Position numbers and translations under genes: made by a program
Shown: positions 7,428 through 62,176 of the stretch, one piece after another
Numbering within the stretch: the stretch's first letter is position 1
How the letters are laid out: each line of letters opens with the position of its first letter
The notes under the pieces: generated by a model
What the model was told of the DNA's origin: nothing
Seen by the model: the letters and a program-made list of their open reading frames with translations, nothing else
Database searches by the model: none
Assembly (NCBI GenBank): GCA_016748015.1
Contig: JAAOMT010000523.1
Span: 680,156-744,155, forward strand
Direction: 5' to 3'
DNA: 64,000 nt
From: Geosiphon pyriformis uo1
Taxonomy: Eukaryota; Fungi; Glomeromycota

Positions 7428-8109
7428 ATGTTAGCCTTGAAAACACTTCCTGACTTATATATAATAATTAATAGAAGTCAAATTAATTACATTCAGAAAA
7501 AAATCACAGCCTTAGTAGTAAACAATTCTCAAAATTATTATTCCTATAAAAGAAGCACAAGAAATTACTTTGAAAATCAATTACCAAAACTTTCAAAACA
7601 AGCTTTAAAAGAAAATTTTTTAATTGCCTCTATTAATATTTTACCAAATGCCACAATCCAACAAAAACTTCTATTATTTCTCAATGAACAGAACAATAAA
7701 TATACTCTTATCTATAGATATTTTTATATTGAAAAAACACTTTATAAACGAAAAATAGAACTTGAAGCAACAAACATTACTCTTGAAGCTATACAAAAAC
7801 AAATCTACAATAAATTTAAGACAACAGTTGGATCAACAAATACTTGCTACAAACTTAGAGCAGCTTTTAGACTCTATGACTTATTCAATACTTGCTACAA
7901 ACTTAGAACAGCTTTTAGACTCTATGACTTATTCAATACTTGCAAAAATGTCCTATAAAATCCAATACTTTACCCAATAAAAATTCAGTACATTAAAAAG
8001 CTTACAGAACTGAAATTTCAACAATTTTCAGACCAAATTACCACAATTATTTTGAACTATTATCTTAACATTACAAACAATACTTGATTTTAATGGAACT
8101 CAGTTTTGA
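7428..8109 (+). pseudogene. ORF3 (accessory protein between integrase and 3' LTR), family A copy 1
   Basis: ORF 7428-7958 clearly homologous to 61814-62134; continues past stops to the PPT. Confidence 0.8.
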
Positions 8110-8120
8110 GAAGAAGATTA

Positions 8121-9079
8121 TGTTACCAGTAGAATTTTAGCTATTAATTAGCATAAAATTACCCTTATAATTCCTATTATTAATTAGTATATATTATTAT
8201 CATTTTTATTATTACTTATTATTTAATCAAATTATCAAATATCATCATTTAATTAATAATTCAATTTGTATTATAGAAATTAAGATAATCAAATTATACA
8301 ATACTTTAAACCATTTAATATTCAAAAATTCGCCAAAATTAGCAGAAATTGGCCGAAATAATTAATAGTTTGTGGAAATAATTTGTAGTTTGCTGAAATA
8401 TATCTTTAATTTGCCAAAATTAAAGCAAAAAAAAAGTGCAAGTTTAAAGACTAATACTATAACAAGTTTTATAAAAAAAAAGCTTCTTTTTTCAAGAAAA
8501 TATATCTTACTTTTAAATATCTTAATTAAAACAAATTATCTCTTACACATTCTTACAAAAAGCAAATAAAAATTAAAAATATTTGAAAACCAAATCCTTA
8601 ATTATTCTACTTGAAATTCACAAAAAATCCAATTAACATTTTAAAATTAATTAGCTACCAATTTCAATAATCTGTTAGTAACCCCAGATTTTGATAGAAA
8701 ACAATTCTCTTAACAATATTTTATTTCTTTTATATTTTTTTTATTTTTCTTTACTTTTTTTATTATAAACATTAGGGTAGTTTACAGACAAAATTCCTGT
8801 AGAAGAGTTGATTTTCACAACAAAATAACTACATATTTTTTAGTGAGTTTCCAGACAAGCAATTCTTGGAAAAAAGTTAATGTTTACTACAACATAACTA
8901 CACAAAGCAACTGGCATGAAATTAGCCATTCTACTTATAAGCCCAACAATTTAAATTATAGAAGATAATTTGAAGATAAATTCAGTTATTAAAGGTTTAA
9001 CTACTTTCAGAAAACGTGAATTCACAACAAACAGACATTAACAACATTAAAAAAAAGAGACCAAAAATCTCCAATAATA
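8121..9079 (+). repeat. 3' LTR, family A (~959 bp)
   Basis: Starts TGTTACC after PPT GAGAAGAAGA; homologous to the reverse complement of 60504-61487. Confidence 0.9.
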
Positions 9080-12000: not shown

Positions 12001-15000
12001 ACTTAAAGTCACTGAACCAATATTTAGCAAAAATAGCATTAGTTAAACTCATTATCATTTCCTTGATCTTATCTCATATGGCATTCAAATTGTCAAAGAC
12101 TTTTGTATCCAAAAATTTACCTATTATTATTAAAAGTTTGATTGAAATACACTTCTTAAAATAGACCCATTTAGCACTATTTGTATCTTTGATATTAAAC
12201 TTCCAGTGATTTTTGTTTGTTTGTTTTCAAATACTATTAAGATTTGCATCCAAAAAATTTTCCAGTCCAACCAAAACCAAAACTGTCTTATGATCTGTGT
12301 TAAAAAATTCAGATACAGAGCCAATCTTATACACCAGAACTGTTGACAACAAATTTTCATTAACAAAAATATAATTGATAACTTTCTCAGCTTCTTTAGA
12401 GTTTATTCAAGTAGGAACCTTAACTAAAAAGTGTTCTTTAAGTAAATTAATCAGACCCAAATCTGAACATTTCTTAAAGCTTGCATTTTTTTTAGAACTA
12501 TTTTTATTGAAGTTACCACTTAGAATTATAAAAAAACTAGAATTAATCATCTTGAAGATTATAAAATTGATATTTAAAGCTTAGCCAAACTATGTACCAA
12601 CAGATACACCAATATATAAACTTAGTATTGTAACTAAAAGCTTGTTTTTAAACAAAAGACATATTAAAATTAACCAATCTGGATTTTATCTATCTTTAAA
12701 ACATGTTAAGCTAAAGAACTGTTTATAATTATGACAATACCAGCATTAAAAAACTCTTATCCAAACCAGAAGTAAAAATCTGAATTCCATCAAACTTATT
12801 TATAATCCATGGCCTAATTTTAGACCTTAACTTTGTTTCAGTAATAATAAAAATCATGTTATCTGAATTCACATGCCAATGAACAATATTTTTCTGCTTG
12901 GCAAAGATATTGAAACCTTTAATGTTGTAAGTAGAAATCTTCTAAACCAGATCTGTTATTTAGAAGAAAGATTTTTTACATCCAAACTAAAATTGTCTAC
13001 TTTTTATTAGGTCCATAATTGTAATCAACAAATTGTCTATATTTACTTCCAACTTTGAAATAATTGATTTATTAAGAATCACTACTTTCACAACAGTTTT
13101 ATTACAAGTGATCACATGTGAATCCTCATTCATTACTATATTTGCTTTTTAATTCTATAATAGAAGAGTTACTAACAGCTAACATTCAAAACTAGATTGG
13201 AAAATCATTGGTCTAAGTGTGTTCAATCTCTTAGCCAGTTCACCAACTTGCTCTGCAAGGCTAGCAAAACTGTGCTCAAGAATGACAAACCTACTATTTA
13301 TTTTATCAAACACAAACAGAGGAGACTTTATCTCCAAAATAGAGCCAAAATTTGACAGACTATCATGCACAAAAAGAGAAAAGAAAGATTTACCAACAAG
13401 TTTAGCCCAAGAGATACTATTAAAAGCAATTAAACATGTAACAAGAGCTGAACATTTAACATAAATGGCTACCAATCTGCTTTTATTAATGTTTGATCAT
13501 ATTTTTTAAGAGAAAACACCAGAAAAAAACTTCTACTTACAAAACAGCCCAATAATATATGATCTATGTTTTCATACTTTGCACACTTGGCACAACTCAA
13601 ACAAAACCAGTACAAACTAGGACTTCTTAAGATTAGAGTTGTTTCTATGACAGAATTAATTAACTTAGCAAAGTCAAAACAAACAACAACACATCTGACC
13701 TAAACATAAATAACTAGATAATAATCAATAACATAAGTTTTTCTATCAACAAATACAATGTAGTTTCAAATATTATGTGCATTTGTTCCTACTGGTAAAG
13801 TATACAATAGTGTCCTATAATTGTTCCTTATATTTCATAATTTTTTGTTTTTATCAGCTCTAACAACATATACTATATCATTTTTTATTAAGATAAACCA
13901 CTGTTACAGTTTAAGAATTTAGCAAAAAAAATCATAAAAATAATACAAACTATTCAATCATAATATAGCACAGTAATAATCTTAGAAAGGTAATGATTAA
14001 CATAGTAGCAAACACCATCTCGCGATAGTGGCAAGCACCAGTTCACAATAGCAGCCAACACCAACTGGTGATAGCAGCAAGCACCAGGTTGAAATATCAA
14101 AAAGAAAGTATTTTCTCGTAGAACTACAAACATGTATATATACAGTAGTTTTAATATTGGGAAAGAATCAATCAAGTAATAAAAATTATAACTTATCAAG
14201 CAATAGATCCAATTTTATCCAACAAACTCCACTTTAAATCATACTTTCAAATTAAATATCCCAAGAAACCTTTAAAATCAAAAAAAAATGAAAAAAAATA
14301 TTTAAAACTGAACTATCACAACCCAAAGTATTAAGAAACTTACTTGTATTATTTATTGAATGAAACTATCATTCATCAACTGAATCCCTTGGAAGAATAA
14401 TCCTTGATCAAGATTATTCACGTTGTTACTAATTGATAAAAGCTTTATTGTGAGAATTAGAAAAGCGCTAAAGACCATTAACATTCTGTGTTTCTAGATT
14501 AGAGAAACACATCAGGCAATTGCAAGGATAGCCTCAGAGAAGACCCCAGACAGTGAGTAGATTTCAGTTCAGCCTCTGAAAAGGAGTACATAAACACACA
14601 CAACAATCAAGAATTAAAGAATAACTTACATCGCAACAGTAAAAAGAAAGCCTTCAGTATAACAAGTGACCTTATCACACAAATAGAATTGAGAAACTCA
14701 CGAAAGACTGATTGCAATTAAAGCGGGATATCAGCAATTAAATATAACAAGAAAACCATCCCATAACACCACTTTGTTGCAACCAAATCAGCATAATTAA
14801 TCTCATTAAATTCAACTATTGTTTTTTGTCATAGCTTCACTAACTGTATTTTGATTGACTTAATCAACCCTAATTTAGAAAATGCAGCATGCACAGCTTT
14901 AATCAGAGTACTAATTGAAATTTTTTTTAATACTACAGCCTAATCTAAATGTTCAGCAGATTTTTTGAGATTAGTATTTACCAAGATTATCACATTCTTT

Positions 15001-31880: not shown

Positions 31881-32380
31881 TTTTTGGACAAAATTTGAAC
31901 AGAGATGAAGTAGAAAACGATTCAAGGAAAAAACTTAAATTAAGGTTTCCAGGAAAGTTTAAAAAATAGTTTTTATGTTTCACGCGTTCTTAGATCTATT
32001 TACCCGATCCATCGAAATGAATTTTAGTTTTTTTTCCTTTTGTGAAAAAGAGAATGGTTTTGCTTTGATAATATTCAAATTAATTTGTTGAAGTTACAAA
32101 ATTAGCTTTCTCAATAATAGATACCGAATACCCAATTGTTTGTCATCAGTTAAGGCTTAGAATCCTCTTCTTTACGGCTAATAAAAGAAACCAAGAATAG
32201 AAGAGTTCGAGATGCATACCAAAATAGAAATCTGTACGTAAAGCTTTAAGTCTCAAAAAAAACCCCTTCAAAGATTCAACCAGTTTTATCCAGAAACAAT
32301 AAATGTTTTTTTCACCTGAATAAAATCATGATCTTGCTAACTTCAAGACAATAACCTTCACTTGATGATTTTAATTCCTT

Positions 32381-33018: not shown

Positions 33019-33149
33019 CTTCAGATCAATTTTCTTTCGGATTTCCAAATTTCCTATTTTTGGGTGATTTTGGCATGTGATCAGATTTTTACAAGAATTA
33101 AACTAATAAGGCCTGTGCTTTTAGAAATTTTAATTTCAATCTCTTTGCT

Positions 33150-35549: not shown

Positions 35550-35720
35550 AAACACTAAACAGCACCACAGACAGTAGAGATTTCTCGCGTAATGCGATCG
35601 ATTTATCTCTGGTTCGTGGAGTGTTTTATTGCTGAGAGGAGTATTCTTACCAACCCATTTTAATCACGACACTAGAAAATGCTTCCACCAAAGATGTCGT
35701 TTCATGCTATGGGTACATTC
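35550..35720 (+). ncRNA. Box H/ACA snoRNA, predicted guide for LSU rRNA pseudouridine at the yeast 25S U2314 equivalent (snR86 target); 5' end approximate
   Basis: H box AGAGGA 35635-40; stems ACCCAT/ATGGGT and ACGACA/TGTCGT; ACA at 35715-17, 14 nt after the upper stem; guides TTAATC + TTCATGC pair with rRNA GCAUGAA-UG-GAUUAA; TATATAAG at 35507. Confidence 0.85.
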
Positions 35721-35949
35721 TTTATAAGTTCCTTTGGAAAACATTTAATATGTGAAAAATTTTAATTTCTCAAATGTATTAACAATTAACAAAACAACAT
35801 ATATGAAAATGTTAGATGTTATTTTGGCTTTTTTCGCGAAATAGCTTTTAGAAGAGTGAATTATTAATCCAAAAAAGTCAAATTAACTAAAAAAAGTTGA
35901 GGCAAGGCTCTGAATTGATCCCATCGAATGGAGAGAGATCTTATGCTCA

Positions 35950-37416
35950 TTGGACCATCTTTCTATAAATCCAGCTGAAATTTTTCAATTATTTCTGGCC
36001 TTCATAAAAATGCATGGTTTTTTGCAGACCAGAATATTTTCGACTTGCTGTATACGCTCGGCAACCAGTACTCTTTTTTCCCTTAAATTAAAACCCTCTA
36101 TAATACGAGATCACAAGTCAAAATTCGGCGAGCTTTTTCGAGGCTACTGTTTACTCCTGCCCCTTAAACGATATTTACCACCGAAAACGCACCTTTTGAA
36201 TTCTCATCAAAAGTCTACAATTCATACATATAGTCGCAAAGGAAGACTTCTCCCTCCTCTACCGACTGTTACTCCCGTTTTTAAGCAGGGTTTCACTATT
36301 TTCTTCCGAGGTCTCAAACATGTTTTAATAGGCTCTATAGCATTTTTAACTTTATTGTTCATAGTATCGCGTGGCGTTCACCTCTATATTGAGCATTTTT
36401 ATTACTCTACTCCTTCCTCAATTCCTTCAAAAGCGCGTGATTTCCTTCGTGCAGCCTATATTTTTGAAGAATGGTATCCAAACCTGGAAAACGCCCAGAA
36501 AATCCTTTACGATGCTTTTATAATTATTCAAAAAGAAAAAGAATTACCTCCAACTGATCCAATAGTGTTGGATATTTTGCTCCGAATCGCAAATAATGCC
36601 ATGAGGCTTGGAAACCTTCGAGAAGCAAATTTAGATTATAAACGCATTTTTGATGTCTTAATTTATCAAGATGATGAGGTGAACAGGAAAAAAGCGATAG
36701 ATGTTGCGAAAAAAGCCGCGAAAATCTCTGTTAAAGTCAAAGATTTTCGATTGGCAGAGGATTATTTGATATGGACGATTGAAACATTGAACAAAGAACT
36801 TCACACTAACAAAAACTTATCATATAGTGGGAATAATATTGAATCCCAAGTTTTCAAAAGGACTACATCTCAAGACTCCTTTATTAATTTGCAATCAAAG
36901 ATGAGCATGGATCTAATTCAATGTACAGTAATGCTTGCTGGAGTTTATGCTACACAAAAGCAGTTCGATAAAGCACTCCCTTTATACTTAGGCTCTCTTA
37001 AGATGCTAGTAGAAAGAAAGGCTACAGAAAAAGATCCTGAAAAGAAGGATTTATCAAAAGAATTGACAGATTCTGATAGTTTTCATCATTGCGGAGATGC
37101 AATCATAATGGGGCATTTAGGAGAAATCTTTTATGCCATGGGAAAAGTAGAAGAAGCTATGGGTTGGTTTCAAAAAGGATTTTTGATTGCAAAACGCGGG
37201 AGTGGTATAAGAAATTGCGATGAATGTGCAGGTGTTATACTTAATAATCTTGGGCTGATAAATGAAAAGAAAGGATTATTGGAAGATGCTAAAGCCTTTT
37301 ATTCTCAAGCACTTTCATTTGCTGAAATCGCCGATGATGTTGAAGGTCGTGAAGAGTTTTCTACGAATTTACATCGAATACAAATCCATGACGAGGAAAA
37401 TAAAAGTTCTGAATAA
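35950..37416 (+). CDS. Intronless TPR protein, probably mitochondrial inner membrane (Mgr3/TTC19-like); likely ATG at 36010
   Basis: 488-aa ORF; basic/Ser-rich presequence-like N-terminus, one TM segment, TPR-like helices (GHLGEIFYAMG, LNNLGLI..A..FY..AL). Confidence 0.75.
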   Translation: MDHLSINPAEIFQLFLAFIKMHGFLQTRIFSTCCIRSATSTLFSLKLKPSIIRDHKSKFGELFRGYCLLLPLKRYLPPKTHLLNSHQKSTIHTYSRKGRLLPPLPTVTPVFKQGFTIFFRGLKHVLIGSIAFLTLLFIVSRGVHLYIEHFYYSTPSSIPSKARDFLRAAYIFEEWYPNLENAQKILYDAFIIIQKEKELPPTDPIVLDILLRIANNAMRLGNLREANLDYKRIFDVLIYQDDEVNRKKAIDVAKKAAKISVKVKDFRLAEDYLIWTIETLNKELHTNKNLSYSGNNIESQVFKRTTSQDSFINLQSKMSMDLIQCTVMLAGVYATQKQFDKALPLYLGSLKMLVERKATEKDPEKKDLSKELTDSDSFHHCGDAIIMGHLGEIFYAMGKVEEAMGWFQKGFLIAKRGSGIRNCDECAGVILNNLGLINEKKGLLEDAKAFYSQALSFAEIADDVEGREEFSTNLHRIQIHDEENKSSE

Positions 37417-41175: not shown

Positions 41176-42554
41176 TTTTTTTTTTTATTACAAATTTTAT
41201 AAATGAAGTCCAACCACTATCTAATACATAGAACTAAACTAAGTAAAACCAACTAAACACAGCTTATGCACAAACTACATGTAATCAGCCACTCAAGCCA
41301 GACAAGGCAACACTATACACCTATAGTAACAAAAGCATCACCACCCAAACCAGAGAAAAAATGACACAATTTGCGCCTACCAAACTTAACAGCAAAAGAT
41401 TTTATAACACCAAGCATGTAAACAACACTAGCCGACAACATAGAAACTACACTGCTGAACAAGCCAGAAATCACACTATTATCCCCAACCAAACCAGTTT
41501 TTTCCATCTCTGCTCTATGCATGGTCCTAACAATCCATATTCAAGTATACTACAACTTTACCACAAATTTGATGTATTCTACTAAGGTCTGAGTAGTTTT
41601 TTTTTTCCCCTCAAAAACTGAAACAGCTTCAGCATACCAATCTCTCATTACAAAATCCTTGCATACTGCTGTATAAAAACTCATATTTGAAGAACATAAC
41701 GAGAGTGAGAGCAAAATAGCAGACAGAGATGAATTCAAAAGATCAGACATCAACATCTATTTTTTAGCAGCTTTAGCCAAAATGTCCCCATGGAGACCAA
41801 AGTCATCAGAATAAGTGAAAACATGATTAAAGAACTCCACCTTATCACACAGCAAACACAAAACACCAGAATAACTTCTGCTATACAATTTTTTTTTAAC
41901 TGCAATTGGCAGCTACCTATATACAGCCTTCATTAAATACATGCATAAATTGGCTGACTTCCTACTGGTGAATTCAGAAAGTATGTGTGAATCAGGATGC
42001 CAAATTGCTGCAGTAGCATCCCAATCTATTTTTTTAATCATAACATTTGGAACTATATCAAAATCCAGACCAGCCTCCCAATAAGCACAGTATATTAACT
42101 GGTGTAAGTCCTGAGCAAAATGACAAACATTGCCAGATATGGTAGTTTTTTTAGTGACTAGAAACCTCTCCTGGATATTAACTGGCAAAGAAAAAGACGA
42201 GAAAGTAGCCTCATTAGCCAGCATGTCAGCTCTTATATTGCCCAATACATCCAAATGTTCTTTAACCTTTACCCACTTAATTGAAATATTTTTGTTTTTA
42301 AGGAGATTAACAATTTGCAATCTTTTGATCCAATATTGGTTATGGAAGTTAGGTGTAGTCAAAGAAGCCTCAAAAATACAGGCATCAATTGCAGATTAAC
42401 TATCCAAGTACAAAACCACTAAGCAAGAGAATGGAACACACTCCAAGACCAACACTATAGCTTGCAGTCCAGCTAAAGTAAAGGACAAAAATCCAGCAAC
42501 CTTAACTCCAATGCCTGCATTTGCAGCCAGAAAGTATGCAGCTGCCCTACCTGC
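41176..42554 (-). mobile_element. LINE 3' part (RNase H, CCHC, 3'UTR, poly(A)); same element as 43421-44533, 53623-54005 and 60216-60503
   Basis: AGRAAAYF..LQAIVLVLE..WVKVKEH..GNIRADMLA; T11 at 41176-41186. Confidence 0.88.
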
Positions 42555-43420
42555 TGTTACGGGATGGTTTTCTTGTTATATTTAATTGCTGATATCCCGC
42601 TTTAATTGCAATCAGTCTTTCATGAGTTCCTCAATTCTATTTGTGTAATAATGTCACTGTTATACTGAAGGCTTTCTTTTTATTGTTGCGATGTAAGTTA
42701 TTCTTTAATTCTTGATTGTTGTGTGTGTTTATGTACTCCTTCTCAGAGGCTGAACTGAAATCTACCCACTGTCTGGGGTCTTCTCTGAGGCTATCCTTGC
42801 AATTGCCTGATGTGTTTCTCTAATCTAGAAACACAGAATGTTAATGGTCTTTAGCGCTTTTTTAATTCTCACAATAAAGCTTTTATCAATTAGTAACAAT
42901 GTGAATAATCTTGATCAAGAATTATTCTTCCAAGGGATTCAGTTGATGAATGATAGTTTCATTCAATAAATAATACAAGTAAGTTTCTTAATACTTTGGG
43001 TTGTGATAGTTCAGTTTTAAATATTCTTTTTCATTTCTTTTTGATTTTAAAGGTTTCTTGGGATATTTAATTTGAAAGTATGATTTAAAGTGGAGTTTGT
43101 TGGATAAAATTGGATCTATTGCTTGATAAGTTATGATTTTTATTACTTGATTGATTCTTTCCCAATATTAAAACTACTGTATATATACATGTTTGTAGTT
43201 CTACGAGAAAATACTTTCTTTTTGATATTTCAACCTAGTGCTTGCTGCTATCACCAGTTGGTGTTGGCTGCTATTGTGAACTGGTGCTTGCCACTATCAC
43301 GAGATGGTGTTTGCTACTATGTTAATCATTACCTTTCTAAGATTATTACTGTGCTATATTATGATTGAATAGTTTGTATTATTTTTATGATTCTTTTTGC
43401 TAAATTCTTAAACCGTAACA
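42555..43420 (-). repeat. Family B LTR in inverted orientation with non-matching flanks
   Basis: Reverse complement of 13902-14768; flanks CTGC and GCAT. Confidence 0.95.
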
Positions 43421-44533
43421 GCATCTACATAGTATATTTTGAATATTGCAAGTGAATTTTTTGTGATCAATGACATCTTAATTAATAATGATAAGATAGT
43501 AGTGATTTCTATCAATCAAGAGGTTAGGAATGCTTCACTATTAATTAATAGATCGCCAATTTTAATTGCTAAAAAGGGTAAGTTACACCAATATTTGGGT
43601 ATCTTTCTGTCAACTGAGAGTTTTTTTAAGCCCAGTTTGGCTCAAGCCCATAAGGATGTCAGGTTTTTTTCTAATATAGTATTAAGAAAAGCTATTATAG
43701 ACAAGCAATCCTGTTATTTGGTTTTGGCAGTTTTGCAACTCATTGTTAGCTATTGTATACAGTTCAGTTTTGTTGCTTTAGATGTGTGTTATAAGTGAGA
43801 TATTATAATTAGAAAAGGTCTTAGAGCCAAAGTTGGTTTACTATATGACTTCTCCAGTAAGGTCTTGCATTACTCTTCTTTATATGGTTTAAAGCTCTTT
43901 AAGCAAGTGCAGTCTGAAAGAAAACTGGTGTCACTAATTTTATTTTCTAATGGCCATGGCATTTTTGAACATTTATTTAATCATAGATTTTTGGATTTGC
44001 AAGTTCTGGGATGGTCTCTTTTGAATCCTTTGCAGTTTTCTGTTAAGTTGCGTGTTAGTCTTATTAACAATTTTTTGGCAGAGGTGGTAAAGATTTTTTT
44101 GGAGAATGAGTTATCTTTAGCAAACAATTTACCTTGTGCCTTTTATGGGTCTGGCAATTTCCTGATGTCTGGCATTCTGAGTCAGTCTTTGTATTACAAA
44201 TCCATTTTTTCATTGAAGCATTTTGGTGTTGCTTTTAGTGACAGACTTCTTGACAAAAAAGAAAAGATGATAGACTGGAAACATTTTGGCATTGGAAGTG
44301 ATTGAATCCAAGGGGTTCTGTGTCTTACTGGTTTTCTTTGACATCTGATTTTATGAACAATTATATTTCTTTAGGGGTCAGAGCTGCTGCTGCTACTAAG
44401 GAGAATGTATTGAGTGTTTTGGATTCTGATAAGTTCTTTGAAATTCATAATAGTCTACTGGAGGTATGATCTGATTGTATTGAGGTTTATACAGATGGAT
44501 CCTTGAGATGTGCTGGTTCTGTTGGGGTGGCGG
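43421..44533 (+). mobile_element. Middle segment of the LINE (RT C-terminus to RNase H start), inverted relative to the rest
   Basis: AST*YILNIASEFF..HQYLGIFL..VYTDGSLRCAGSVGVA. Confidence 0.88.
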
Positions 44534-45032
44534 TGTTACGGTTTAAGAATTTAGCAAAAAGAATCATAAAAATAATACAAACTATTTAATCATAATATAG
44601 CACAGTAATAATCTTAAAAAGGTAATGATTAACATAGTAGCAAACACCATCTCGCAATAGTGGCAAGCACCAGTTCACAATAGCAGCCAACACCAACTGG
44701 TGATAGCAGCAAGCACCAGGTTGAAATATCAAAAAGAAAGTATTTTCTTGTAAAACTACAAACATGTATATATACAGTAGTTTTAATATTGGGCAAGAAT
44801 CAATCAAGTAATAAAAATCATAACTTATCAAGCAATAGATCCAATTTTATCCAACAAACTCTACTTTAAATCATACTTTCAAATTAAATATCCCAAGAAA
44901 TCTTTAAAATCAAAAAGAAATGAAAAAGAATATTTAAAACTGAACTNNNNNNNNNNNNNNNNNNNNAGAAAAGAAAATCAAAAAGGAAATAATAATTAGC
45001 AATAATTCATTGCTAAAAAGGAAAAGACAAAA

Positions 45033-48000
45033 GTGGTGACAAAAACCCCTAATCTTACTGTTTTTGAATTCTGCCGTGCTATTTACACACAAAATCAAAG
45101 TGATCTTAGATTACCAGAAGGGTGTTGTCCAGCAGAATCTGTCCTCACTTATTATATCAATGCCAGAATAAATTATCATATAGGAAAGGAAGAAGAACCA
45201 CACGACGCAAAACTTGGATTGTATAGAGAATTATCACAATACACTACAAAAGAAGTAGCAGTAATAGCCGCAACTATTGTTAAAATCTATCGAGAAATTG
45301 AGCAATACACCAACGAAAATTTTCCAATATCCACAGGAAACACTAGGGAATGCGCCAACAAAACCAAAGAAAATTTAGAAACTAATCAAGAAAGTAACCA
45401 GCAAAAACTAGAAACACCAGCTCAAACGCCAAAGAAAACTGTCACTCAATCAATAAAGAAACAACATATTTATTCACCAGAAGATAAATCNNNNNNNNNN
45501 NNNNNNNNNNAAATATCCCAAGAAATCTTTAAAATCAAAAAGAAATGAAAAAGAATATTTAAAACTGAACTATCACAACCCAAAGTATTAAGAAACTTAC
45601 TTGTATTATTTATTGAATGAAACTATCATTCATCAACTGAATCCCTTGGAAGAATAATTCTTGATTAAGATTATTCACGTTGTTACTAATTGATAAAAGC
45701 TTTATTGTGAGAATTAGAAAAGCGCTAAAGACCATTAACATTCTGTGTTTCTAGATTAGAGAAACACATCAGGCAATTGCAAGGATAGCCTCAAAGAAGA
45801 CCCCAGACAGTGGGTAGATTTCAGTTCAGCCTCTGAGAAGGAGTACATAAACACACACAACAATCAAGAATTAAAGAATAACTTACATCGCAACAGTAAA
45901 AAGAAAGCCTTCAGTGTAACAGTGACATTATCACACAAATAGAATTGAGGAACTCATGAAAGACTGATTGCAATTAAAGCGGGATATCAGCAATTAAATA
46001 TAACAAGAAAACCATCCCGTAACATNNNNNNNNNNNNNNNNNNNNGAAAGTAACCAGCAAAAACTAGAAACACCAGCTCAAACGCCAAAGAAAACTGTCA
46101 CTCAATCAATAAAGAAACAACGTATTTATTCACCAGAAGATAAATCATACCATTTTTCACTAGAAAATAAGATACAAATTCCATTAGGAGCTGCATCATC
46201 ATCAACATCAACTCCACAAATGCCAAAAACTCCTAGTTATATTGATAAAATTAAACAACGTAACTGGGGAGACATACCAATTACAGGAGGATATTCATCA
46301 CTATTCCAAAACCCTCTTTTTCAGCCAAAATTTTAGAACAGAGTTTGAAAACCGTGAAGAGGAGTCTGAATCAGAATCCGAAAAAGAGACCAGCAAAAAA
46401 ACAATCACAAGACCAGTTACTGGAACAAGCAGCCAGTCCAAAAACCAAGAAACTCGTGATCAAGAAGAAGAACCGGATATAAGGGAAGCCACCTTTAGGA
46501 ACACTCAAGGAAATATCATCCCACGTCCTCTTAGACCAATAAACCCACCAGCAGAAAACAGCAACGAAATAACCACACCATACATTGCAAAACTAACAGA
46601 TTTCTCAGGAAAGGAAGAAGAAACGGATGTGCACACATGGCTCAGAGAAGCACAAAAAGCCATCCAGGCAAATAACTGGAATGACCAAAGAGCAATTCAA
46701 ACATTACCTTTCTTCCTGAAAGGCACAGCCGACTCATGGTATCAAAGCCTGGAAACAAAACCCACGAGCTTCGCCGAATTTAAAAATGCACTCCTGGAGT
46801 ATTTTAGCGACCCAAACGCCGTAATCCAACTACAGAACAAATTCAATACTATCAAGCAAAATACCGGTGAAACTGTTACCCAATACCTTGCTCGATTCAA
46901 TCGAATTTGCCATCAGATTGAAGCGATTGAACAAGGATACTACACTGATCCTCAGGTTTTAAATCAGTTTATTAGAGGATTAAAAAGCAGCATTTTAGGA
47001 AGAGTACGCCCTGCCCACCCTAATTCCTTACCAGAAGCCATTATGCTCGCCAGAGCCCTTGAATCGGCTAAGAAAGAAGCTAACCATAGTCAAATGGTTA
47101 ACATGGTAATGGAGGAAAATAAGACAGAAACATTAGAGAAAAGAGTAACGCGATTAGGAGAAGAACTCTCTAAGAAAATAGAAAGTTACCTCATCCCGGA
47201 TCCGAGAAAAAATACATACCAACCACCCCAAAGACGCAGCCAGGAAGTCAGCGACAGTCGAAATAATCACCTGTCGCGCCAGGAATTTAGAACAGAAACA
47301 CGCGCCTGCCATTTTTGCAAACGCGTAGGACATTTGATTAGTCAATGTCGAACGCGAATGATGCAGAAAGCATGCAAAAATAATTACTACACGCCACCCC
47401 AAATGCCCAGAAACCAGTACACACCAATACCATGCCAATATCCCACCACGTATTAAAATCAAGGAGCTTACCAGCAACAGCCCATGATAGCCAACCTGAA
47501 TTAGCGTTCCGAGGCCCGAAATCAGCCCATGTGGAACCAGAACGCGTTGGTCCAGAGGAATCCAAACCGTGCTGGAACCAATCAGCAAACCAATCCAAAC
47601 TACCAAAATTATCAACAAACTTACTTTAATATACTGGAAAACCTGATCATTGGAAACAATGATGGTAGAAACATAAACAGAACCAAGAATTCCTCCAAAT
47701 TGAGCCAGACAATACCACCAGCAGTTGCCACCNNNNNNNNNNNNNNNNNNNNNNNNNGCATAGTAATACCTACAAAAGTATTAGTAATGGACGCTACACA
47801 ATATCAAGCGTTAGTAGGGAATGACTGGCTAACAAAAGCCAACGCCACCCTAGACTGGACCACCCAAGAGCTTCTGATCAATTATAATGGCCACCAGGCC
47901 AAAATTCCAGCCACCTGTGGCCACTTCCAAAAACCCAGCACCAACCAAAGACCTACCTTCGAATTTGAGGAAAATCCAGCACTACCAGCCATTGAAACCT

Positions 48001-51000
48001 ATCAGCTCTCTTAGGCTGATGACCAAAGAACAGGACTACCAGCCGTACCAACGTGGACCAGCGAAGAAAGATCTGAATAGAACCAGGTAAGTTCACGAAG
48101 AAACCACCAGTGACGCAGACCAAAGCTAGAATGCTCGGTTTGCAAGAAGAAACTCTCGTCTATGACTGCGTGCAGCACACCGGACGAAGACCCAAGAAAT
48201 CCCACTCACTACTATTGTAACCGTTGTAACAAAGAAAAATACGGTTACCCAGAAAGACACGGAAAATGGGACGAGGAACCATGCCTCACTTGTGGAGAAC
48301 CGTTACCAAGAGAGTGCGACTAGAACGACTTACCAGGCAGAGGAGGAACGTGTGACGCAACTTGCCAATACACGATCCTCATCTGTGACTGGGTAAGAGG
48401 AGGAACGCCGTTCGAAGCAGCGTTCAACAGAGCGTTAAAAAGACTACAGCACTACCCACACGACGAGGACGAGTTGTACAACACCACACAAGCCAAAGTA
48501 AGAGGAGGAACCGCCAAAGAAATACGACGTTGGAAAGAGTCAGCCGAAGTAGCCGACGAAGTTGCCAGCTACAACATGTTCGACCCAGTGGACGAATTCC
48601 AGGACTACTACCAACAACTATGCCCCACTCGACAAGAGCAAAAACAATACCTCGTCCAAATTAACACTTATCTCTGCGAAAACTGTCTCATCCCGTGCCA
48701 AAGTCAGTGCTGTGAAGAGTGTCAAGACGAAAGGGACTTAGAAAGAAAAATGGAAATTGAGAATCAGCAGTCTCAAAATCAATCAATAAATCAACAAGAC
48801 TCACCTGACGGTCCCAAGTCAGAAAAATTTGTAGCCTATACCGACCTAGAACAGGTGACCGACATCTGATACTTCGACAACGGGCACTTAGGAATAATAC
48901 CTGAAAGAGCCCATCCAACTGATGCCGGATTCGATCTACGTTATCCAGAAGACCAATCCACAATGTTACCACCCAGGAGCATCACCAAAATCGACCTAAA
49001 AATAGCGGTTGAAATTCCGCCAGGAATAATGGTTCAAATGGCGTCATGATCAAGTCTTGCGAAAAAAAGGAATAAGCATTCAAGGAGGAGTAATTAACTC
49101 TGGATACACTGGAAATTTGATGGTTTTGCTACAGAATAATTCAGAAAAGTCTTATACCATTGAATCTAAGAAAAAGATTGCACAAGCAATTTTCCTACCA
49201 TTGGTAAAAATTGGGAAATTCGTGTCAGTGAAAAATCGTGAGGAATTGTCACAAACAACGAGAGGAACTTTTGGTTTCGGATCGACAGGAAAAGGAATTG
49301 AAGCGAATTTCACTGAAACAATAGGGGAAAAAGGCAAAGTAATTAAAAATGAGCAGTTCATCATGCTCCTACTATATGGAAAATCAGAAATAAGAATAAA
49401 AAGGACAATTAAAGAAAAAGACCTAATATTTGAGCCCTACCCAGAAACTTGCCAACAGTTTCTCATAGGACTTACTAACCTTTTTATTCCAGTTGATAAA
49501 GCTCAATAGATAAAAATTTCTATCGCAAACACCACAGAAGAACCCGTCTACATTCCGGAAGATACCATCATTGGATACCTCGGAACGGAGCTAGAAAACG
49601 TGTCAACACCACAAGAAATTCTAAATTTCCCAGAAATCACCCTCTACTGTGAACTCACTTCAATAAATTGGCAACAACTGGTAGAATGCTATCAATTTAC
49701 GCCAGAAAAATTGGCCAAATTAAACATTAGAACAATGGATCCCGACCAACAGTGACAATTAAAAGCATTAATTTTAAAATACTCTGATATATTTTCAAGA
49801 AATGGCGAATTTGGAAGAACCAACTTGGTTCAACACCAAATCCCCACTGGAGATGCCAGACCTGAAAAACAACGCGCTTACCGTGTCCCACCAATGGAGC
49901 ATAATTTTATCAGAGAAGAAGTCCAAAGCATGTTGGAAAAAGGAATAATACAACCATCAATGAGCCCATGGTCCTCACCAGTTGTTTTAGTAAGGAAAAA
50001 GAACGGAAAAATTAGATTTTGCGTCGACTATCGCAAACTAAACAGCAAAACAACCAAAGACTCATACCCAATACCGTTAATTGACGAAATCTTCGATGTT
50101 TTTGGAGGAGCAAAATGGTTTTCTATACTGGACTTGACCAGTGGGTACTAACAAGTAGAAATGGACCCAAAGGACAGGCATAAAACAGCATTGACAACAC
50201 AAAATGGCAATTATGAGTTCAATGTAATGCCATTTGGATTAACAAACACTCCCGCAACATTCCAAAGACTAATGGACGTAATTTACTCCGGAATCCTGTG
50301 GCAATCTATTATTGTCTACTTGGATGATACAAATGTTTTCTCGTCAAAATTCATGGATCATCTCCAATATTTACAACAAGTTTTTGAGAGATTGAGACAC
50401 GCTGGACTTAAACTAAATCTAGAAAAATGTTTCTTTGGGAAAAATGAGCTAGCATTTTTAGGACACGTAGTTGGAAAAGATGGAATAAAACCAGATCCAT
50501 CAAAAATAGACAAAGTGAAAAATTTTCCAGTACCTCGAAACGTCTCAGAAGTTAGAAGCTTTTTAGGACTCGCATTTTACTACCACTGCTTTGTAGAAAA
50601 CTTTTCAAACATCACCAAACTCCTTAATTACCTACTATCTAAAAATGTGAAGTTTGAATAGACTGAAGCACAACAAAAAGCTTTTGAGTACCTTAGACAA
50701 AAGCTCATTGAATCACCAATAATAATCTATCCGAATTTCAACAAGAAATTCATTTTGGCCACAGATGCCTCTGGAACTGGACTTGGAGCCATTCTGTCAC
50801 AAAAAGATGATAATGGAAGAGAACGTGTAATTGCTTATGCCAGCAGAAATCTCAGTACGGCAGAACAAAACTATGCAGCACATGAACTTGAATGCTTAGC
50901 AGTAGTCTGGAGTTGTGTTCACTTTGACACATATTTACGGTACCAACCCTTTGAGATTATGACAGATCATAGAGGTCTGGTCTGGTTAAATAACAAGAAA

Positions 51001-51123
51001 GCGCTAAAAGGAAAATACGCCAGATGGTCACAAACATTAGCACCATACGATTATATTATCAAATACAAAGAAAGTACCAAAAATGCTAATGCCAACTGTT
51101 TGTCAAGAATGAGACACACATAA
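45033..51123 (+). pseudogene. gag-PR-Cys-rich-dUTPase-RT-RNaseH polyprotein, family B (some stops, gaps)
   Basis: ORFs 45033, 46242, 47529, 48474, 49057, 49825, 50161 and 50755; ends ANANCLSRMRHT*. Confidence 0.92.
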
Positions 51124-51152
51124 AAATCACCAACCCACCCGTCACAACAACA

Positions 51153-52381
51153 ATGAACAACCACCTTTACAAAAACCTCAGCCAATACTTGGAAACACTA
51201 CAAATAGACGAAGAAATGCCAGTAAAAGAGCTAATTAAGCTCCAAAAATTAGCAAAACACTATTTCATCCAAAATCACATATTTTATTACCAGAATCGAC
51301 AAAATCCAGATAATCCATTAAGAGTTATAACCACGGATGAAAAAGAAACTATCTTATTTAACATGCACTCAGATATTCATTCAGGCCACTTTGGAAAAAC
51401 AGCAACCATCCAACGTGCAACTAGCCATTACTATTGGCCAAAAATGAGCTCAGACATAATCCAATACATAAGAAATTGTGACCCATGCCAACAAAGAGGA
51501 GGAGCAAAAACAATGGAATTATTAAGACCAATAAAAGTTGGACAGCCATTTGACAGAATCGGAATTGATTTAGTTGGACTCTTAACAATAACAACAAGAA
51601 ACAACCGTTATATTGCAGTAGCCATGGACTATCTCACCAAATGGCCAGAAGCTAGAGCTATTAAAACAGCTGATGCTATTTCCGTAGCTCAATTCGTACA
51701 TGAAGACTTAATTTNNNNNNNNNNNNNNNNNNNNNNNNNNNNNNNNNNNNNNNNNNNNNNNNNNNNNNNNNNNNNNNNNNNNCAGCAGTACTACTAGCAT
51801 ATAGAACAGTAAAACAAGATACTACACAATTCACACCGTTCGAACTAGTTTATGGAAGAAAAGCCACATTACCCATTGAACTTACTATTCCAACTTATCC
51901 AAGTGACACTATCACGGAAGCAACATTCCAGGAAACACTACTTAGAAGAACATACGAATTAATGGGAACTTTAGAAAACAAAAGAAGAAAAGCAGCACAA
52001 AATATTGAACAATCACAAAAACAACAAAAAGTGAGACATAATAACCAGTTACCAGATAATATAATTAGCTACAAAATTGGAGATAAAGTATTGTTGCATC
52101 GTACAAAAATGGAAAAACAGTGGAGTGGAAAATTTGATCACAAGTGGGATGGACCATTTTATATTCACAAAATACTTGGAAATGGAGCATACAAGCTAAG
52201 ACTAGATGATAAAATATTAAGAAAAGCAGCACATGATAACCGGCTGAAATTCTATTACAGTAAACCAGTAATAACAACAAAAACACCCAGAATTGGAACA
52301 CAATTACCTTTAATTCTACCAGAACAAATTCCACGAGATTTAGAACCAATAGTTTTAATTGAACATTATTCAAAAAGATAA
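51153..52381 (+). CDS. Integrase in a separate ORF (HHCC, catalytic core, GPY/F-type C-terminus; gap inside)
   Basis: Own ATG; HSDIHSGH..CDPC, RIGIDLVG, DYLTKWPEA, KWDGPFYIHKILGNGAYKL. Confidence 0.88.
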
Positions 52382-52465
52382 TTAATCTTAGATCATGACA
52401 AAAATGATTTAACAACCATAAAAATGCATACAAAAGATTCCAAAATAGCAGTCAAAATTAAAACA

Positions 52466-53111
52466 ATGATACTTATTCCAGAAAACATCAACAATATAAC
52501 TCAACAATTAGTTGAAAGCTTACAACAATTAAAATCCGATCTGGAAATCACAGTTAATAGCTCCAAAATAACATACATAAAAAGAACAATAGAAAATCCA
52601 AAAACAAGAAAAGAACATAATTTTGAACCATATAATATTGCCAAATATAACAACAAATTTATCAGCAAAGTTATTGAAAAATTAGAGATAGCATTGGGCA
52701 ATACATTAATAATGAAAAAAATAGAAATAAGTGAATTAACACCAGACACATTTAGCAACTTGAAAACGAAATTTCCAATTAATTACTGTTATTATCAACT
52801 AGGAAAGCACTTAAACATACAAACATTATACTCAAAAGACTCAACTAGAGTGTTTGACAAAACAACTATCCAACTATTAGAACCTTTCATTGGAAAAACC
52901 AACACTACATTCCATTCAAAAACAGTTTACAGAATTTTCAAAGCATTTGAAAACTGTCACAAATTATTGTTGGACCCAACCATAAACATAATAACAACCA
53001 ACAGTATTGGACGACTTACCACCTCGCAATTTCAAGAATTACAACAACAAATTAATCACACAGTATTGAACCACTATAGTAACTTAGAATTTAATGAAGA
53101 AATTAACTTCG
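52466..53111 (+). CDS. ORF3 accessory protein, family B (3' end in gap; alternative ATG at 52424)
   Basis: Open for over 210 codons; distant homolog of family A ORF3. Confidence 0.75.
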
Positions 53112-53622
53112 NNNNNNNNNNNNNNNNNNNNNNNNNNNNNNNNNNNNNNNNNNNNNNNNNNNNNNNNNNNNNNNNNNNNNAAGTATTAAGAAACTTACTT
53201 GTATTATTTATTGAATGAAACTATCATTCATCAACTGAATCTCTTGGAAGAATAATTCTTGATCAAGATTATTCACATTGTTACTAATTGATAAAAGCTT
53301 TATTGTGAGAATTAAAAAAGCACTAAAGACCATTAACATTCTGTGTTTCTAGATTAGAGAAACACATCAGGCAATTGCAAGAATAGCCTCAGAGAAGACC
53401 CCAAACAGTGGGTAGATTTCAGTTCAGCCTCTGAGAAAGAGTACATAAACACACACAACAATTAAGAATTAAAGAATAACTTACATCGCAACAGTAAAAA
53501 GAAAGCCTTCAGTGTAACAGTAACATTATCACACAAATAGAATTGAGGAACTCACGAAAGACTGATTGCAATTAAAGCGGGATATTAGCAATTAAATATA
53601 ACAAGAAAACCATCCCGTAACA

Positions 53623-54005: not shown

Positions 54006-57000
54006 TGTTACTCATAAAAAGAAAACAGTTATAGAAAATAGTAGACCAATAGGCAAGTAGTAGTTAATATGTAAACATATTGCTCAGTAATATGGAGCAA
54101 TATCAGAAATTATAGCATATTGCTTAGCAATGTAGAGCAATGTCAGAAATCAAGGCACATCACTCAGCAATGTAGAGCGATGTCAAGAAAATATGACACA
54201 TAGCACATCATTCGGGAATGTGAGCAATCTTATAGAACATCAATTATGTATATATAGTGGTAACATTAGAAGTAGAAAAAGCAGAATCCATTAGTTAGAA
54301 ACCTTCTACATCACAAATATCAATAAATAATTATTCACTATCTCAATTCACTTTCTACTATTAACACTTTATGTTGATAGTAATTAATATTTAACCATAC
54401 AAGAACAATAGCTCTTGATCATAGCTATTAACAGGATATTAACTTGTAAATCACCTTGGCTTATTTTTTACATTTCTTTATTTTCTTTTATTTCTTTTAT
54501 TTAATTTTGTTGTATACTAATTGATTAAAAGCACTGAGTTATTAATGTCATGGATAGCCTGGTAAAAGACCCAGAAATAAGAATAGCATTATATATATTA
54601 TTGGATAGCTTACCAGAAGGACACAACTGCCAGAATAAATCTGGCCACCAAGCTGAGAAAAAAATTGGGAAACAACTTACACAAACTAACTGCATATAAC
54701 ATCAACAAAGAATCTCTGTTTATTATACAAAGAACTCAACTCTAAAACCTTCAGATACAACCAACATATCAGTATTACTAGCACTATTAATCAATTAAGT
54801 ACCAAGTTATGGGTTTGTTATTTGCTTTGAGACTTCAAATAATTACCTGTAATATTTGGTGCTCTCTGTAAGATATAATCTTACAGAGAACCTGTACCAA
54901 CAACTCCATTCAAAAGTGGCAGAATCAGAAAACATAGGAGCAAACCATTTAGGATTCATGAAATCCTTATTTCAACACTACTGTTAACACTTGGGATTAA
55001 CCCCAAATCACATATCAGCAGAATCAGCCTTCAACTTTTACGTCAATAAAAGAATTGCCTACTTATTAAAAACAGCAACAAACACTGAATCAGTAAGGGA
55101 GACTTTTTACAATAAATTAATCCAAAACAGCAGCTTACCAACAAACTATAATTTCACATCTATCATTACTGAGATTAATAAAAAAATTGAACATCACACC
55201 CAACAGAAATATCCAATCACCTATGCAAGTAAAGACAAAAGAAAACTACAAACACCAGCAGTAACACCCAAAAAAATACAACCAACCACTTGGAAGAAAC
55301 ACAGAATTGAATCACCTACCAATCCATCATATTATTATACTCCTAAAAGCACCATCAATATTACATTAACAGACATGTCCACATTGAATGCGACATCAAC
55401 ATTTGGATGATTCTCATTTCAAAGTAAACAAAAGAAAGAAGACTTATTAGGACCATACAGTGTGTATTTTGAAGGATTTAAATCATGATTGCCAACACCA
55501 TCAGGATTTTGATCACTACCATCTCAACCAGATTTTGGAACTGCGAGTCCTTGGGAAGTCCCAGAATTGGAAGGAGAACAAGAAGAAGAGAAAAAAGAAT
55601 CTGAGGATCAGGAATTTACATACCAAAACCTGATTCCAGGAAACCTGGAATTTGAAACCCTGAATGTTTAAACTCCGAAAAATCCAAACCAAAAAAATCT
55701 GGAAATCAAAACTCTGAATTTTCAAGCTCAGCCAAATCAGAATAACCAAAACCCCAACTTAATTAATCAACAAAACTTACCTCCAGTAATTGTTATTGAT
55801 CAACCACCAATTAATCCAATAGCCAAATCCATACAACAACCACTTCAATAGCTATCACAACAACCCAACTTAGATCCAATGGCCTATGCACCAATCGCAA
55901 AACTTGACAATTTTACCAGTGAAGAGGACAACACTCAAGTATGGCTAAACAACATAGAAAAAGCCATCACAGCCAATGGATAAAATGATGTCTGAACAAT
56001 GCAAGCCATTCCCTACTTCCTCAAGAATACTGCTAATTTATGGTATCAGAGCTTGATTAATAAATCACAAGACTTTAATGCCTTCAAAATGGAATTCTTA
56101 AGATACTTTAGCAACAATAACAGTATCAATCACCTAGTTAATACATTCACCACCATGAAGCAAGGAGAAACTGAAGCAGTCACTACTTACCTAGGACACT
56201 TCTATAGAAACCTGCGCCAAATCCAAGCAATTGACACCAACTATTTCACAGTGCCACAGATTCTTAACCAGTTTATCTATGGCCTGCACAGCAGTATCTT
56301 GCAATATGTACGTTCATTGCATTCAGGCATCTTTTAAGACATAGTCACCCATGCCAGAGATTTCGAATCAGCTGAGTTAAAAGCCAACCACACCCAAGCT
56401 GTTAATCTAGTAATGAACGGATCATCTAAATTGGATTCCAAATTGGAGAAATTCAATAAAACAATTAATCAAAAGATAGAGGAATACTTAGCTAACAACA
56501 ATCAGACAATTTATCAACCACCACAACGACACCACAATCAAGAAAACTCTAATCATCCACAGAATCAACCACATCCATCTTTATTGACCAATCAACAGTG
56601 GCAACAGGAAATGCATATCTGCCACTATTGTGGTAAACAAAAACATATCCAAATCAACTGCTGCCAGTGTATAAATAACCAATAATTGGAAAATCAATAT
56701 CAAAGCCCCGATCACTGGTTCTCAACTCTGAATCATCAATCAAACTCAGCACAATATCAAACCACTTATCTGCCAATAACACAGCAACCAATCTATCAAC
56801 CATCAGCATATCAAATCCCAATTTATCAACTGCAGACAATTTACCAGCCACAGCTACCAGTAATATATCAACCACAGTTACAAGTAATCTATCAGCCTTA
56901 ACAATCAATCCAAACACTACCCCAAAACCCAGCTCAAATGACATCAGGAGATCTCAAACCCAGAATCACCCAAAACTGAAGATCGGTGATGGTCATTCAC

Positions 57001-60000
57001 CAACCAATCACCAGCCCCTTTTACCAACTCACTGGATTATGCTCTCGGAATTTGGATACTGGTTCCAACCAAAACCCGAATTCCCAACACTATTTAAGTC
57101 TTTTGGTTACTCCAGAAAATGCCACTACCAACAACCCAAAACCCCATTAACAAATAACACTTACCAACAACATCCTACCAGCAACCATTACCAATGACAA
57201 ATCATTGGCCACCATTTTTCCCTTTGAACTCGAGGAAACCACAATAGTACTGCTATTCAGTAGAGCTGTTCTAGAAGAAAAACCCATTACAGCTATGTAC
57301 ACTAATATGAAAGTTGATGGACACTTCATCAAACTGATCTTAGATAGTAGATCAGCTGGCAGCATCATCACCAGACAACTCATGGATCAATTAAGTTGCC
57401 AAGTTGATCACACTGCCAGTGCTAGAATTATCACAGCTGATGGAGCAACCAAAACACCCATTGGAGAGATTGACAATCTATTCATAGAAGTCAATGACAT
57501 TATTATACCAATTAAGGTACTGGTAATAGAAGCCACCCAGTACCAGGCTCTCATTGGCAATGACTGGCTGTTTAAAGCCAGCACTATTATGAACTGGAAC
57601 ATACAAGAGGTCCAACTCAGTCAACATAACCAACATACAAGGGTACCAGCCATCTGTGGTCACTTTAAATCAAATCATCTCTCCACACCATTGATTGAAT
57701 TGAAAGAAGAAAAACTGAAACCTACCTGGGAGGCATACCAAGTGTCGTGGGCTGACAATAACCACAACAAACTGCTGCTAATATTATTGTGAGACAAGTC
57801 AGTAAAAGGAAAACAAAAAGAAAAACTCACTTGGAAAACTGACAATCTGACATGGATTGACAATGATGACAGTAAACCAACAGTAAATTGGGAGTGGAAA
57901 AAAGATAAAGGAAGAGACAAAGAGAAAAGAAAAGAAAAAGACACTATCCAAGCCAACAATACTTATATTCCAGACACTTATGCTTTATCACAACAGTCTA
58001 CCTATTGCTGACCCAAATTAATATGCATTAATTGCGGCAAAAAATTGTCATCAATGGGTGTATGCTGTGGCAATAATAAGGAATACCAAATGGCGACCAA
58101 ATTCTACTACTGTATATGTGTTATAGAACACTTTGGATAACCGAAAAGACAAGAAAAATGGGACAATGAATCTTGTCTAGCTTGTGGTGAAACCTTACTC
58201 GATGAAAGAATGTGGAACAACATTCCTGGTCAAGGAGGAATATGTGACACTTTGTGTCAGTACACAATCCTTATCAGCAACTGGGTCAAGAAAGAAACTC
58301 CAATAGAAGCTGCTTGAAGAAAAGCTGTGCAATGATTAAACAGTTGTCCACATGACAATGATGAGATCTGGAAAATGGTAATGGCCAAGATAGAAGGAGC
58401 ATCATTTGAAGAAATCAGAGAAATCAAAAACAACCCACCAGAACTCATAGAACTTAACTGGGACCCAGAACCAGTTATAAATCTTCTAGATCCAAAACAA
58501 TTTCATGAACACTACCAAGAGTTGACATCCACAAAAGAAGAGCAAAAGCAACACCTAGAATAATTGAATACTCAACTATGTCAACACTGCCTAATTCCTT
58601 GTGATTTTCAATATTGTAATGAGTGTGACCTTATTTACAATCCACCACCATGCATGATCTACACGATCCCAGAAGAAAACAAACCAATGAGCAGCTGCAC
58701 ATCGGAATCGGAATCAGTTTTCAATCCTGATTCAAACTCTAACAACAACGATGATGAAAACAATGGTTCCAGCTCCACTTTAATTAGCAATACAAATTAT
58801 GACAATTCAAACTCTGATTCATATCCCAAAACATTTATCACACTTCTTGACCTTACCAAAGAGCAGGAACTGAAATGGTTTAGTGATAATAATGAAGGTA
58901 TCATGCCTGAATGCATGCACAATACTGATGCAGAGTTTGATCTGAGATATCCCAGAAAAGATCCCATTAAATTGAAACCACATTTGCACACCTGCATTAA
59001 TCTCAAAGTAGCATTGGAAATCCCAGCAACAACAATGGTTCAACTAGCATTCAGGAGTAGTTTAGCAAAAAAAAGAATAAACATCAAAGGAAAAATAATT
59101 GATGCAGGATATGTAGGAAATATCATTGCTATGCTACAAAATGATTCAGAAAAAGCATACACTATAGACCCAAATAAAAAAATAGCACAGGCAATATTCC
59201 TATTTCTGGTAAAAATAGCTCAGTTAGTGTCAGTAAGAAACAGAGTCAAACAAACAATACTTGAAAAAGAAGTATTAAAATTAATTCAAAATGAAGATTT
59301 CAACAGAGCTCAATATTAAAAAGGAAGAAATATTGTTACTCATAAAAAAAAACAGTTATAGAAAATAGTAGACCAATAAGCAAGTAGTAGTTAACATGTG
59401 AGCATATTGTTCAACAATATGAAGCAATGTCAGAAATTATAGCACATTGCTTAGCAATATAAAGCAATGTCAAAAATCAAGGCATATTGCTCAGCAATGT
59501 AGAGTGATGTTAAGAAAATATGACACATTGCTCAGCAATGTGAGCATTACTCAAGAAATCATAGCACATTGCTCGGGAATGTGAGCAATTTTATAGAACA
59601 TCAATTATGTATATATAGTGATAGCATTAGAAGTAGAAAGAGCAGAATTCATCAGTTAGAAACCTTCTACATTACAAATATCAATAAATAATTATTTACT
59701 ATCTCAATTCACTCTCTACTATCAGCACTTTATGTTGATAGTAATTAATACTTAACCACACTAGAACAATAGCTCTTAATCATGGCTATTGATAGGATAC
59801 TAACTTGTAAATCGCTTTGGCTTATTTCTTACATTTCTTTATTTTCTTTTATTTCTTTTATTTGATTTTGTTGTATACTAATTGATTAAAAGCGCTGAGT
59901 TATTGATGTCACAGATAGCTTGGTAAAAGACCCAGAGATAAGAGTAGCATTATATATATTATTGAATAGCTTACCAGAAGAACACGACTATCAGAATAAA

Positions 60001-60503: not shown

Positions 60504-61499
60504 TGTTACCAGAGGTTTTTGGTCTTTTCTTAGCTCTTGTATGTTTGTTGTAATGCTGTTAATTCACGATTATAGGAAGTGTTTGAACCTCTGATAACTG
60601 AATTTATCTTCAAATTATCTCCTATAATTTGAACTGCTGGGCTTATAAGTGGAATGGCCAAGTCCGTGCCAGTTACTTTGTATAGTTACATTGTAGTAAA
60701 CGTCAACTCTTTTCCAGGAATTGCTCGTCTGGAAGCTTACTAAAAATATGTAGTTATTTTGCTATGAAAGTCAACTTTTCTACAGGAATTCTTGTCCATA
60801 GGCTACCCAAATAATTTATAATAAGAAAAGAAAGAGAATAAAAGAAATGTAAAAAAAAAGTAAAACTGATGATTTATAGAAGTCGTTTCGGATCCAGGCC
60901 TGGAAATGCTTTAACAATCTACTGAAATTGGTAGTTAATCAATTTCAACCTGTTAGTAGAAATTGGTTAATTTCAAAGGAAATAATTAAAAATTTGGCTT
61001 TTTGAATTTATTTGATATTTATTTTGTTTTTGTGTGTAAAGGATGATTCTAATTATTAAATCTGAAGTAAAATACATTTTCTCGAAAAGAAAAGCTCTTC
61101 TTTTATACAACTTGTTGTAACACTATTTTATGAACTTGAACTTTGCTCTTTTCTACAATTTTGCTGAACTAAAGATATATTTTGGTGAACTACAAGTTAT
61201 TTCTGCGAACTATTAGATATTTTGGTACACTATCAATTATTTCGGCAAATTTCTACAAATTTCGGCAAACTTTTAAATGTTATATATTTCAGGGTATTAC
61301 ATGATTGATTATCGCACTTAGGTTACATTTGTGTTATATACAAATTGGATTATTAATTAAATAATAATTTTGGACATTTTGCTAATGTAATAAGTAATAA
61401 TTTGAAATAATAATATATGCTAATTAATGATAAAATTTATAAGGGTAATTTTATGCTAAACAATATTTCTAATTTTGTCTGATAACATAACCTCCTCCT

Positions 61500-62176
61500 C
61501 AAGACTGAGCTCCATCAAAGTCCAAGTACTGTCTGTAATTTCCAGATAATAATCCAAAATTATTGAAGAAATTTGGTCTGAAAATTGTTGAAATTTCAGT
61601 TCTGTAAGCTTTTCAATGTATTGAATCTTTAAAGGCTGTAAAATTGGGTTTTGTAGGACATTTTCACAGGTGTGGAATAGGTCATAAAGTTTAAGAGCAG
61701 CTCTTAGTTTATAATGACTGTTTGTAGGTCCAGCTGTTGTCTTGAATTGATTGTGGAGTTGTTTCTAAATAGCTTCTTTTGTGAGATTTGCTGCTGTAAG
61801 CTCCCATTTTTGTTCATGAAGTGTTTTTTTCAATGTAAAAATATCTATATATTAGAGTATAGTTGTAGTTTTTGTCATTAAGACACAGTTGAAGTTTTTG
61901 TTGAATAGTAGCATTCGGTGGAATACTAATAGGAGTGAGCATTAAGTTTTCTCTTAAAGCAAGCTTTAGAAGTTCTGGCAGGTGAATTTCAGAATAACTT
62001 CTTGTGTTTTTCTTATACGGGTGATATTTTTGTGCATTTGGGGCTAAATTTGTAACTACTTCTGTTTGGGTATAATTAATGTGGTTTCCAGTAACAATAA
62101 TAGATAATTCGGGTATTGTTTTTAAAGCTAACATTAGTTTTTGGGATAATTGTTAAATGTTTTGAGGAATAGACAT
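61500..62176 (-). pseudogene. ORF3 accessory protein, family A copy 2
   Basis: MSIPQNI*QLSQKLMLALKT.. aligns with family B MILIPENINNITQQLVESL..; contains stops and a frameshift. Confidence 0.8.

Follow-up and report, generated by a model that had tools for sequence, protein, structure and literature searches.

Extra sense open reading frames (ORFs) between pol and the 3' long terminal repeat (LTR) constitute a recognised class, termed aORF-3S (PMC7264820; PMC11728184), and those covered by the accounts cited here come from plants and insects and are often Env-like, with transmembrane segments. Accessory proteins of other elements include VANC of the VANDAL DNA transposons, for which binding and demethylation were established by experiment (PMC5735166), and CERV of the Caenorhabditis elegans LTR retrotransposon Cer1, a non-Env regulatory protein made from a spliced mRNA that exports genomic RNA (PMC10309623). 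Among fungi, Postia, Phanerochaete and Tuber have Gypsy elements that carry a dUTPase in pol, including between the protease and the reverse transcriptase (RT), and a figure legend in this survey, which deals mainly with chromoviruses, includes an "add. ORF" whose function is unknown (PMC2864245). Here we describe ORF3, a gene of Ty3/Gypsy elements in a 64,000-nt stretch from the fungus Geosiphon pyriformis uo1 (contig JAAOMT010000523.1, positions 680,156 to 744,155; hereafter the window), a species in which LTR elements make up 41.2% of the genome (PMC11952901). ORF3 is a real, conserved gene of the aORF-3S class: it shares with the described members its position between pol and the 3' LTR, its sense orientation, its conservation across copies and the lack of any cellular homolog among the matches found (PMC7264820), but it is fungal, predicted to be soluble and represents a different family. 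It was studied in a family B element (~44534-53622), two family A copies (A1 and A2) and a family C element of the window, and in a relative on contig L001.

In family B, a sense frame at 52424-53110 is open over 229 codons and enters a run of Ns at its 3' end, so that its stop codon and the polypurine tract (PPT) are not visible; the chance of such a frame at the local composition is ~7e-9. It begins 42 nt downstream of the integrase stop at 52381 and has in-frame ATGs at 52424 and 52466, the second of which aligns with the starts in other subfamilies. The sequence-only reading had reported sense ORFs of ~215-230 aa between integrase and PPT in family B and both family A copies. The B frame is indeed open and both A copies are homologous to it (tblastn within the window: E 1e-7, with 23% identity over 207 columns, and 5e-6; A copies against the ORF3 family profile: E 5.7e-25 and 5e-34), but neither A copy is open: A1 has a premature stop (7956-7958) and a 12-codon duplication, and in A2 codon 8 is already a stop and the frame shifts behind YFYIEK. 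The placement is accurate for family C, where the stop lies just before the PPT, but not for A1, A2 and L001, in which the frame continues past the PPT and enters the LTR. Family C does keep the last ORF3 codons, as had been suspected: the product of 59221-59316 is identical at 25 of 33 positions to the C-terminus of a full-length relative, P0164. In several Geosiphon gene models, pieces of ORF3 are fused with a frame of 60 codons that lies in the B LTR (53357-53560), which may reflect splicing or a gene-caller artefact.

A search with the B protein returned 9 matches, all from G. pyriformis, 6 of them at 73-95% identity over 37-89% of the length. Against 1.84 billion representatives, phmmer found 42 matches at E <= 0.001, and the 20 that were looked up comprise 18 Geosiphon models and 2 ENA/JGI proteins. 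The profile search gave 224 matches, with 119 of the 120 listed from Geosiphon, and a second one 54 matches, 53 of them from Geosiphon. Many "hypothetical proteins" of this fungus (those 119 of 120 listed matches) are thus this transposon gene. Among family-A-like proteins, 70 of the 117 examined reach at least 200 aa with the end typical of the family, and L001, the contig that carries the JGI protein, has the order RT-RNase H, integrase, ORF3, PPT and LTR. A cluster in the Mucoromycota Atlas (score 0.94, below the tool's recognition threshold; 98 members) offers a lead to a wider range. A literature search, weighted towards open-access texts and leaving aside supplements with annotations of transposable element libraries, found no description of the ORF3 family or of the split integrase.

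ORF3 is under purifying selection as a protein. Between A1 and A2 (207 codons, 62% identity) the nonsynonymous rate dN is 0.23 and the synonymous rate dS 0.99, a ratio of 0.23 (bootstrap 0.13-0.35) by the simple Nei-Gojobori method for one pair of decayed copies; the integrase of the same pair gives 0.31 (0.22-0.42) at 65% identity. Divergence at the three codon positions of ORF3 is 0.26/0.16/0.39, i.e. highest at the third. A dN/dS near 1, which the sequence-only reading had named as an outcome that would refute its proposed trans-activator or anti-silencing role, was not seen, and the many profile matches together with this ratio agree with the aORF-3S pattern of numerous conserved copies under selection. 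The assertion that ORF3 diverges far more than integrase stands for A versus B (22-23% versus 49-57% identity) but not within A (62% versus 65%). Taken with the low ratio, the drop in identity between A and B indicates that ORF3 is selected as a protein and outpaces integrase over long distances. At its 3' end, the gene passes over a short DNA motif 5' of the PPT in one of two frames, yielding ORF3 ends of the DFDGAQY or the ELSLEEE type, which split cleanly in a tree of 22 hand-picked C-terminal domains (support 100/99, with a warning of long branches; B on the DGAQY side). Since different families translate this conserved motif in different frames, it is probably a cis-acting signal overlapping the ORF3 end. 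Its sites are at 59300-59335, 61520-61490 and 8085-8120 in the window and at 3088-3120 in L001.

The product is predicted to be small and soluble. As the sequence-only reading held, it does not look like Env: the 8 members inspected have neither a hydrophobic segment (maximal 19-residue Kyte-Doolittle values of 0.27-1.29, with transmembrane anchor and signal peptide judged by hydropathy alone) nor the furin site R-x-[KR]-R. The model predicts that the C-terminal domain is compact and helical and has a helix-Gly turn-helix at its core, and its structural matches are mostly helical bundles. The similarity to helix-turn-helix (HTH) domains of the ParB type and to DUF1016_N is faint (best Pfam E-value 0.028, far short of the cut-off; hhalign gave less than 1%, and its positive control was itself weak). 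ORF3 differs from the ParB/Spo0J/VirB HTH and DUF1016_N proteins in having no significant sequence match to them, no match to the ParB N-terminal domain and a eukaryotic retroelement context; the part of the literature consulted on ParB-type HTHs in eukaryotes describes fusions to methyltransferases and, as far as it goes, does not mention LTR elements (PMC4738411).

The LTRs of each family contain their own repeat array, with units of 23 nt in B, 40 nt in C and 20 nt in A and a 9-mer present three times in L001. Among the five LTRs compared, the B, C and L001 units are each confined to their own LTR, and cross-family alignment is limited to one 43-nt stretch. CpG is depleted in the element parts (0.05-0.68, versus 0.89 in the host-gene stretch), which suggests that the host methylates the elements. 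We tentatively favour the view that ORF3 is a family-specific LTR-binding regulator, which raises its own family's transcription or protects it against host methylation. Its predicted helical domain would bind the repeat array in the LTR of its own family, and this binding would increase transcription or shield the element from methylation; we infer that ORF3 is expressed, enters the nucleus, binds DNA, takes the LTR array as its target and acts positively on transcription. The argument for this reading is that ORF3 is selected and predicted to be soluble, that its best fold hint is DNA-binding, and that both protein and LTR array turn over by family, as in VANC. Like VANC, it is an accessory protein encoded by the element, diverges fast from family to family and is accompanied by family-specific tandem repeats in non-coding DNA (PMC5735166). 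However, VANC was absent from the Pfam, PDB-sequence and fold matches of ORF3 (no direct comparison was made), it belongs to another transposon class and kingdom, and its activities are experimental facts, whereas those of ORF3 are predictions. The proposal of a trans-activator or anti-silencing factor, for which foamy virus Tas, HTLV Tax and caulimovirus TAV provide analogies, is partly supported overall. If true, such a regulator would be a fungal retrotransposon counterpart of VANC and would help to explain LTR expansion despite the methylation footprint on the copies in the window; several divergent ORF3 protein/LTR pairs are available for comparing cognate with non-cognate combinations.

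The arrangement of the cistrons brings in a second reading. In 4/4 elements (B, A1, A2, L001) the stop of the RNase H frame lies immediately past its last conserved motif, and integrase begins 29, 49, 46 and 24 nt after that stop, respectively, beyond a G-poor, A/C-rich spacer (the integrase ATG of A1 is mutated). The offsets between the two represent all three frames, therefore neither readthrough nor a single fixed frameshift explains the start of integrase. ORF3 is a further cistron, 84-316 nt beyond integrase. Judging from this layout, read from DNA alone, integrase and ORF3 would each need reinitiation, internal entry or an RNA of their own. A polycistronic layout with short spacers is what a TAV-type protein would serve, and CERV shows that an accessory protein of a Gypsy element can export RNA (PMC10309623); ORF3 might accordingly act on RNA, in TAV-like reinitiation for downstream cistrons or in CERV- or Rev-like export of unspliced genomic RNA. 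Pfam and viral-fold searches gave no match pointing to TAV, and neither a splice nor a homology linking ORF3 to CERV emerged. We regard an action on RNA as rather unlikely, given that the Pfam-type searches returned no RNA-binding family and that overall charge reveals no conserved basic patch. Moreover, short-spacer reinitiation or internal promoters could suffice without an element protein, and fast divergence between families would be less expected of a partner of the conserved ribosomal machinery.

A DNA-binding fold would fit equally well a cofactor of the particle or of integration, which would bind element cDNA ends or tether integrase to target chromatin. Integrase is a separate protein, the domain search matched no chromodomain in that of B, and ORF3 adjoins it in every intact context seen; but the much faster divergence of ORF3 between families makes such a partnership improbable. 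No better placed is a protein that binds a host factor or limits its own element (suppressing silencing non-specifically, or controlling copy number) and has no sequence-specific target in nucleic acid: helical bundles prevail among the structural matches and accessory proteins of Arabidopsis transposable elements are predicted to have many host contacts (PMC13547354), but no specific match emerged and the weak ParB-like hint favours nucleic acid. Finally, a decayed Env, or a frame without function that chance or cis-acting DNA close to the PPT has preserved, would agree with the Env-like position and with the two-frame motif under the last codons, but it is very hard to reconcile with the lack of hydrophobic segments and furin motifs in all 8 members, the low dN/dS with most change at third positions, and a protein conserved over 200 residues across families whose LTRs do not align.

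Table 1. Positions of ORF3 and associated features (window coordinates, except for L001)
Feature	Positions	Strand	Remarks
Family B ORF3, starting at the homologous ATG	52466..53110	+	last codons and stop masked by N run
Helical C-terminal domain conserved in ORF3 (118 aa)	52733..53086	+	predicted, pLDDT 84; weak ParB/Spo0J-like arrangement
Spacer, integrase stop to ORF3 start (84 nt)	52382..52465	+	AT-rich; three upstream ATGs
ORF3 copy A1	7428..8140	+	broken (premature stop, 12-codon duplication); runs into own LTR
ORF3 copy A2	61456..62176	-	broken (early stop, frameshift); runs into own LTR
Last ORF3 codons, family C	59221..59319	+	internally deleted element; fused directly to dUTPase; stop just before PPT
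RNase H/integrase junctions	51121-51155 (B); ~5810-5865 (A1); ~63730-63683 (A2); 772-801 (L001)		
Family B 5' LTR	44534..46025	+	pieces in scrambled order, interrupted by N runs; four 23-nt units from 44634
Gag	46188..47456	+	Ty3_capsid, Retrotrans_gag, weak CCHC knuckle
dUTPase domain	49030..49509	+	upstream of RT; E 1.4e-14
RT and RNase H	49880..51123	+	two internal stops, then terminal stop
Spacer, RNase H stop to integrase ATG (29 nt)	51124..51152	+	A/C-rich
Integrase	51153..52381	+	separate cistron, own ATG; Integrase_H2C2; SH3_Tf2-1-like tail below cut-off
Family B 3' LTR, visible half	53181..53622	+	
Family B solo LTR (866 nt)	13903..14768	+	complete; four 23-nt units at 14002-14093
Family A LTR array	61177..61276	-	20-nt units
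Family C LTR array	54076..54195	+	40-nt units, partly palindromic cores

The family B carrier follows the Ty3/Gypsy order (gag, dUTPase, RT, RNase H, integrase), with LTR pieces on both sides and RT-RNase H before integrase (Table 1). A protease match was obtained in family C only, the corresponding region of B being interrupted by Ns. The dUTPase in pol recalls the elements of Postia, Phanerochaete and Tuber (PMC2864245). The B 5' LTR and leader (44534-46146) consist of overlapping, out-of-order pieces split by N runs, probably an assembly (scaffolding) artefact, and the B solo LTR is bordered by a 4-bp direct repeat, likely a target-site duplication. Between protease and dUTPase, B (48030-48870) and C (57800-58830) share a Cys-rich stretch of ~250-300 codons, for which the B piece 48324-48866 gave no meaningful Pfam match. 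The family C element (54007-59860) lacks RT, RNase H and integrase owing to the internal deletion that fuses dUTPase to ORF3. Outside these elements, an island of host genes (19000-37400) has higher GC, shows no CpG depletion and encodes a TPR protein (Pfam) as well as a gene which we take to resemble ribosomal protein L6. On the minus strand, 41913-44305 holds fragments, broken up by family B LTR copies, that presumably derive from a LINE element (RNase H-like).
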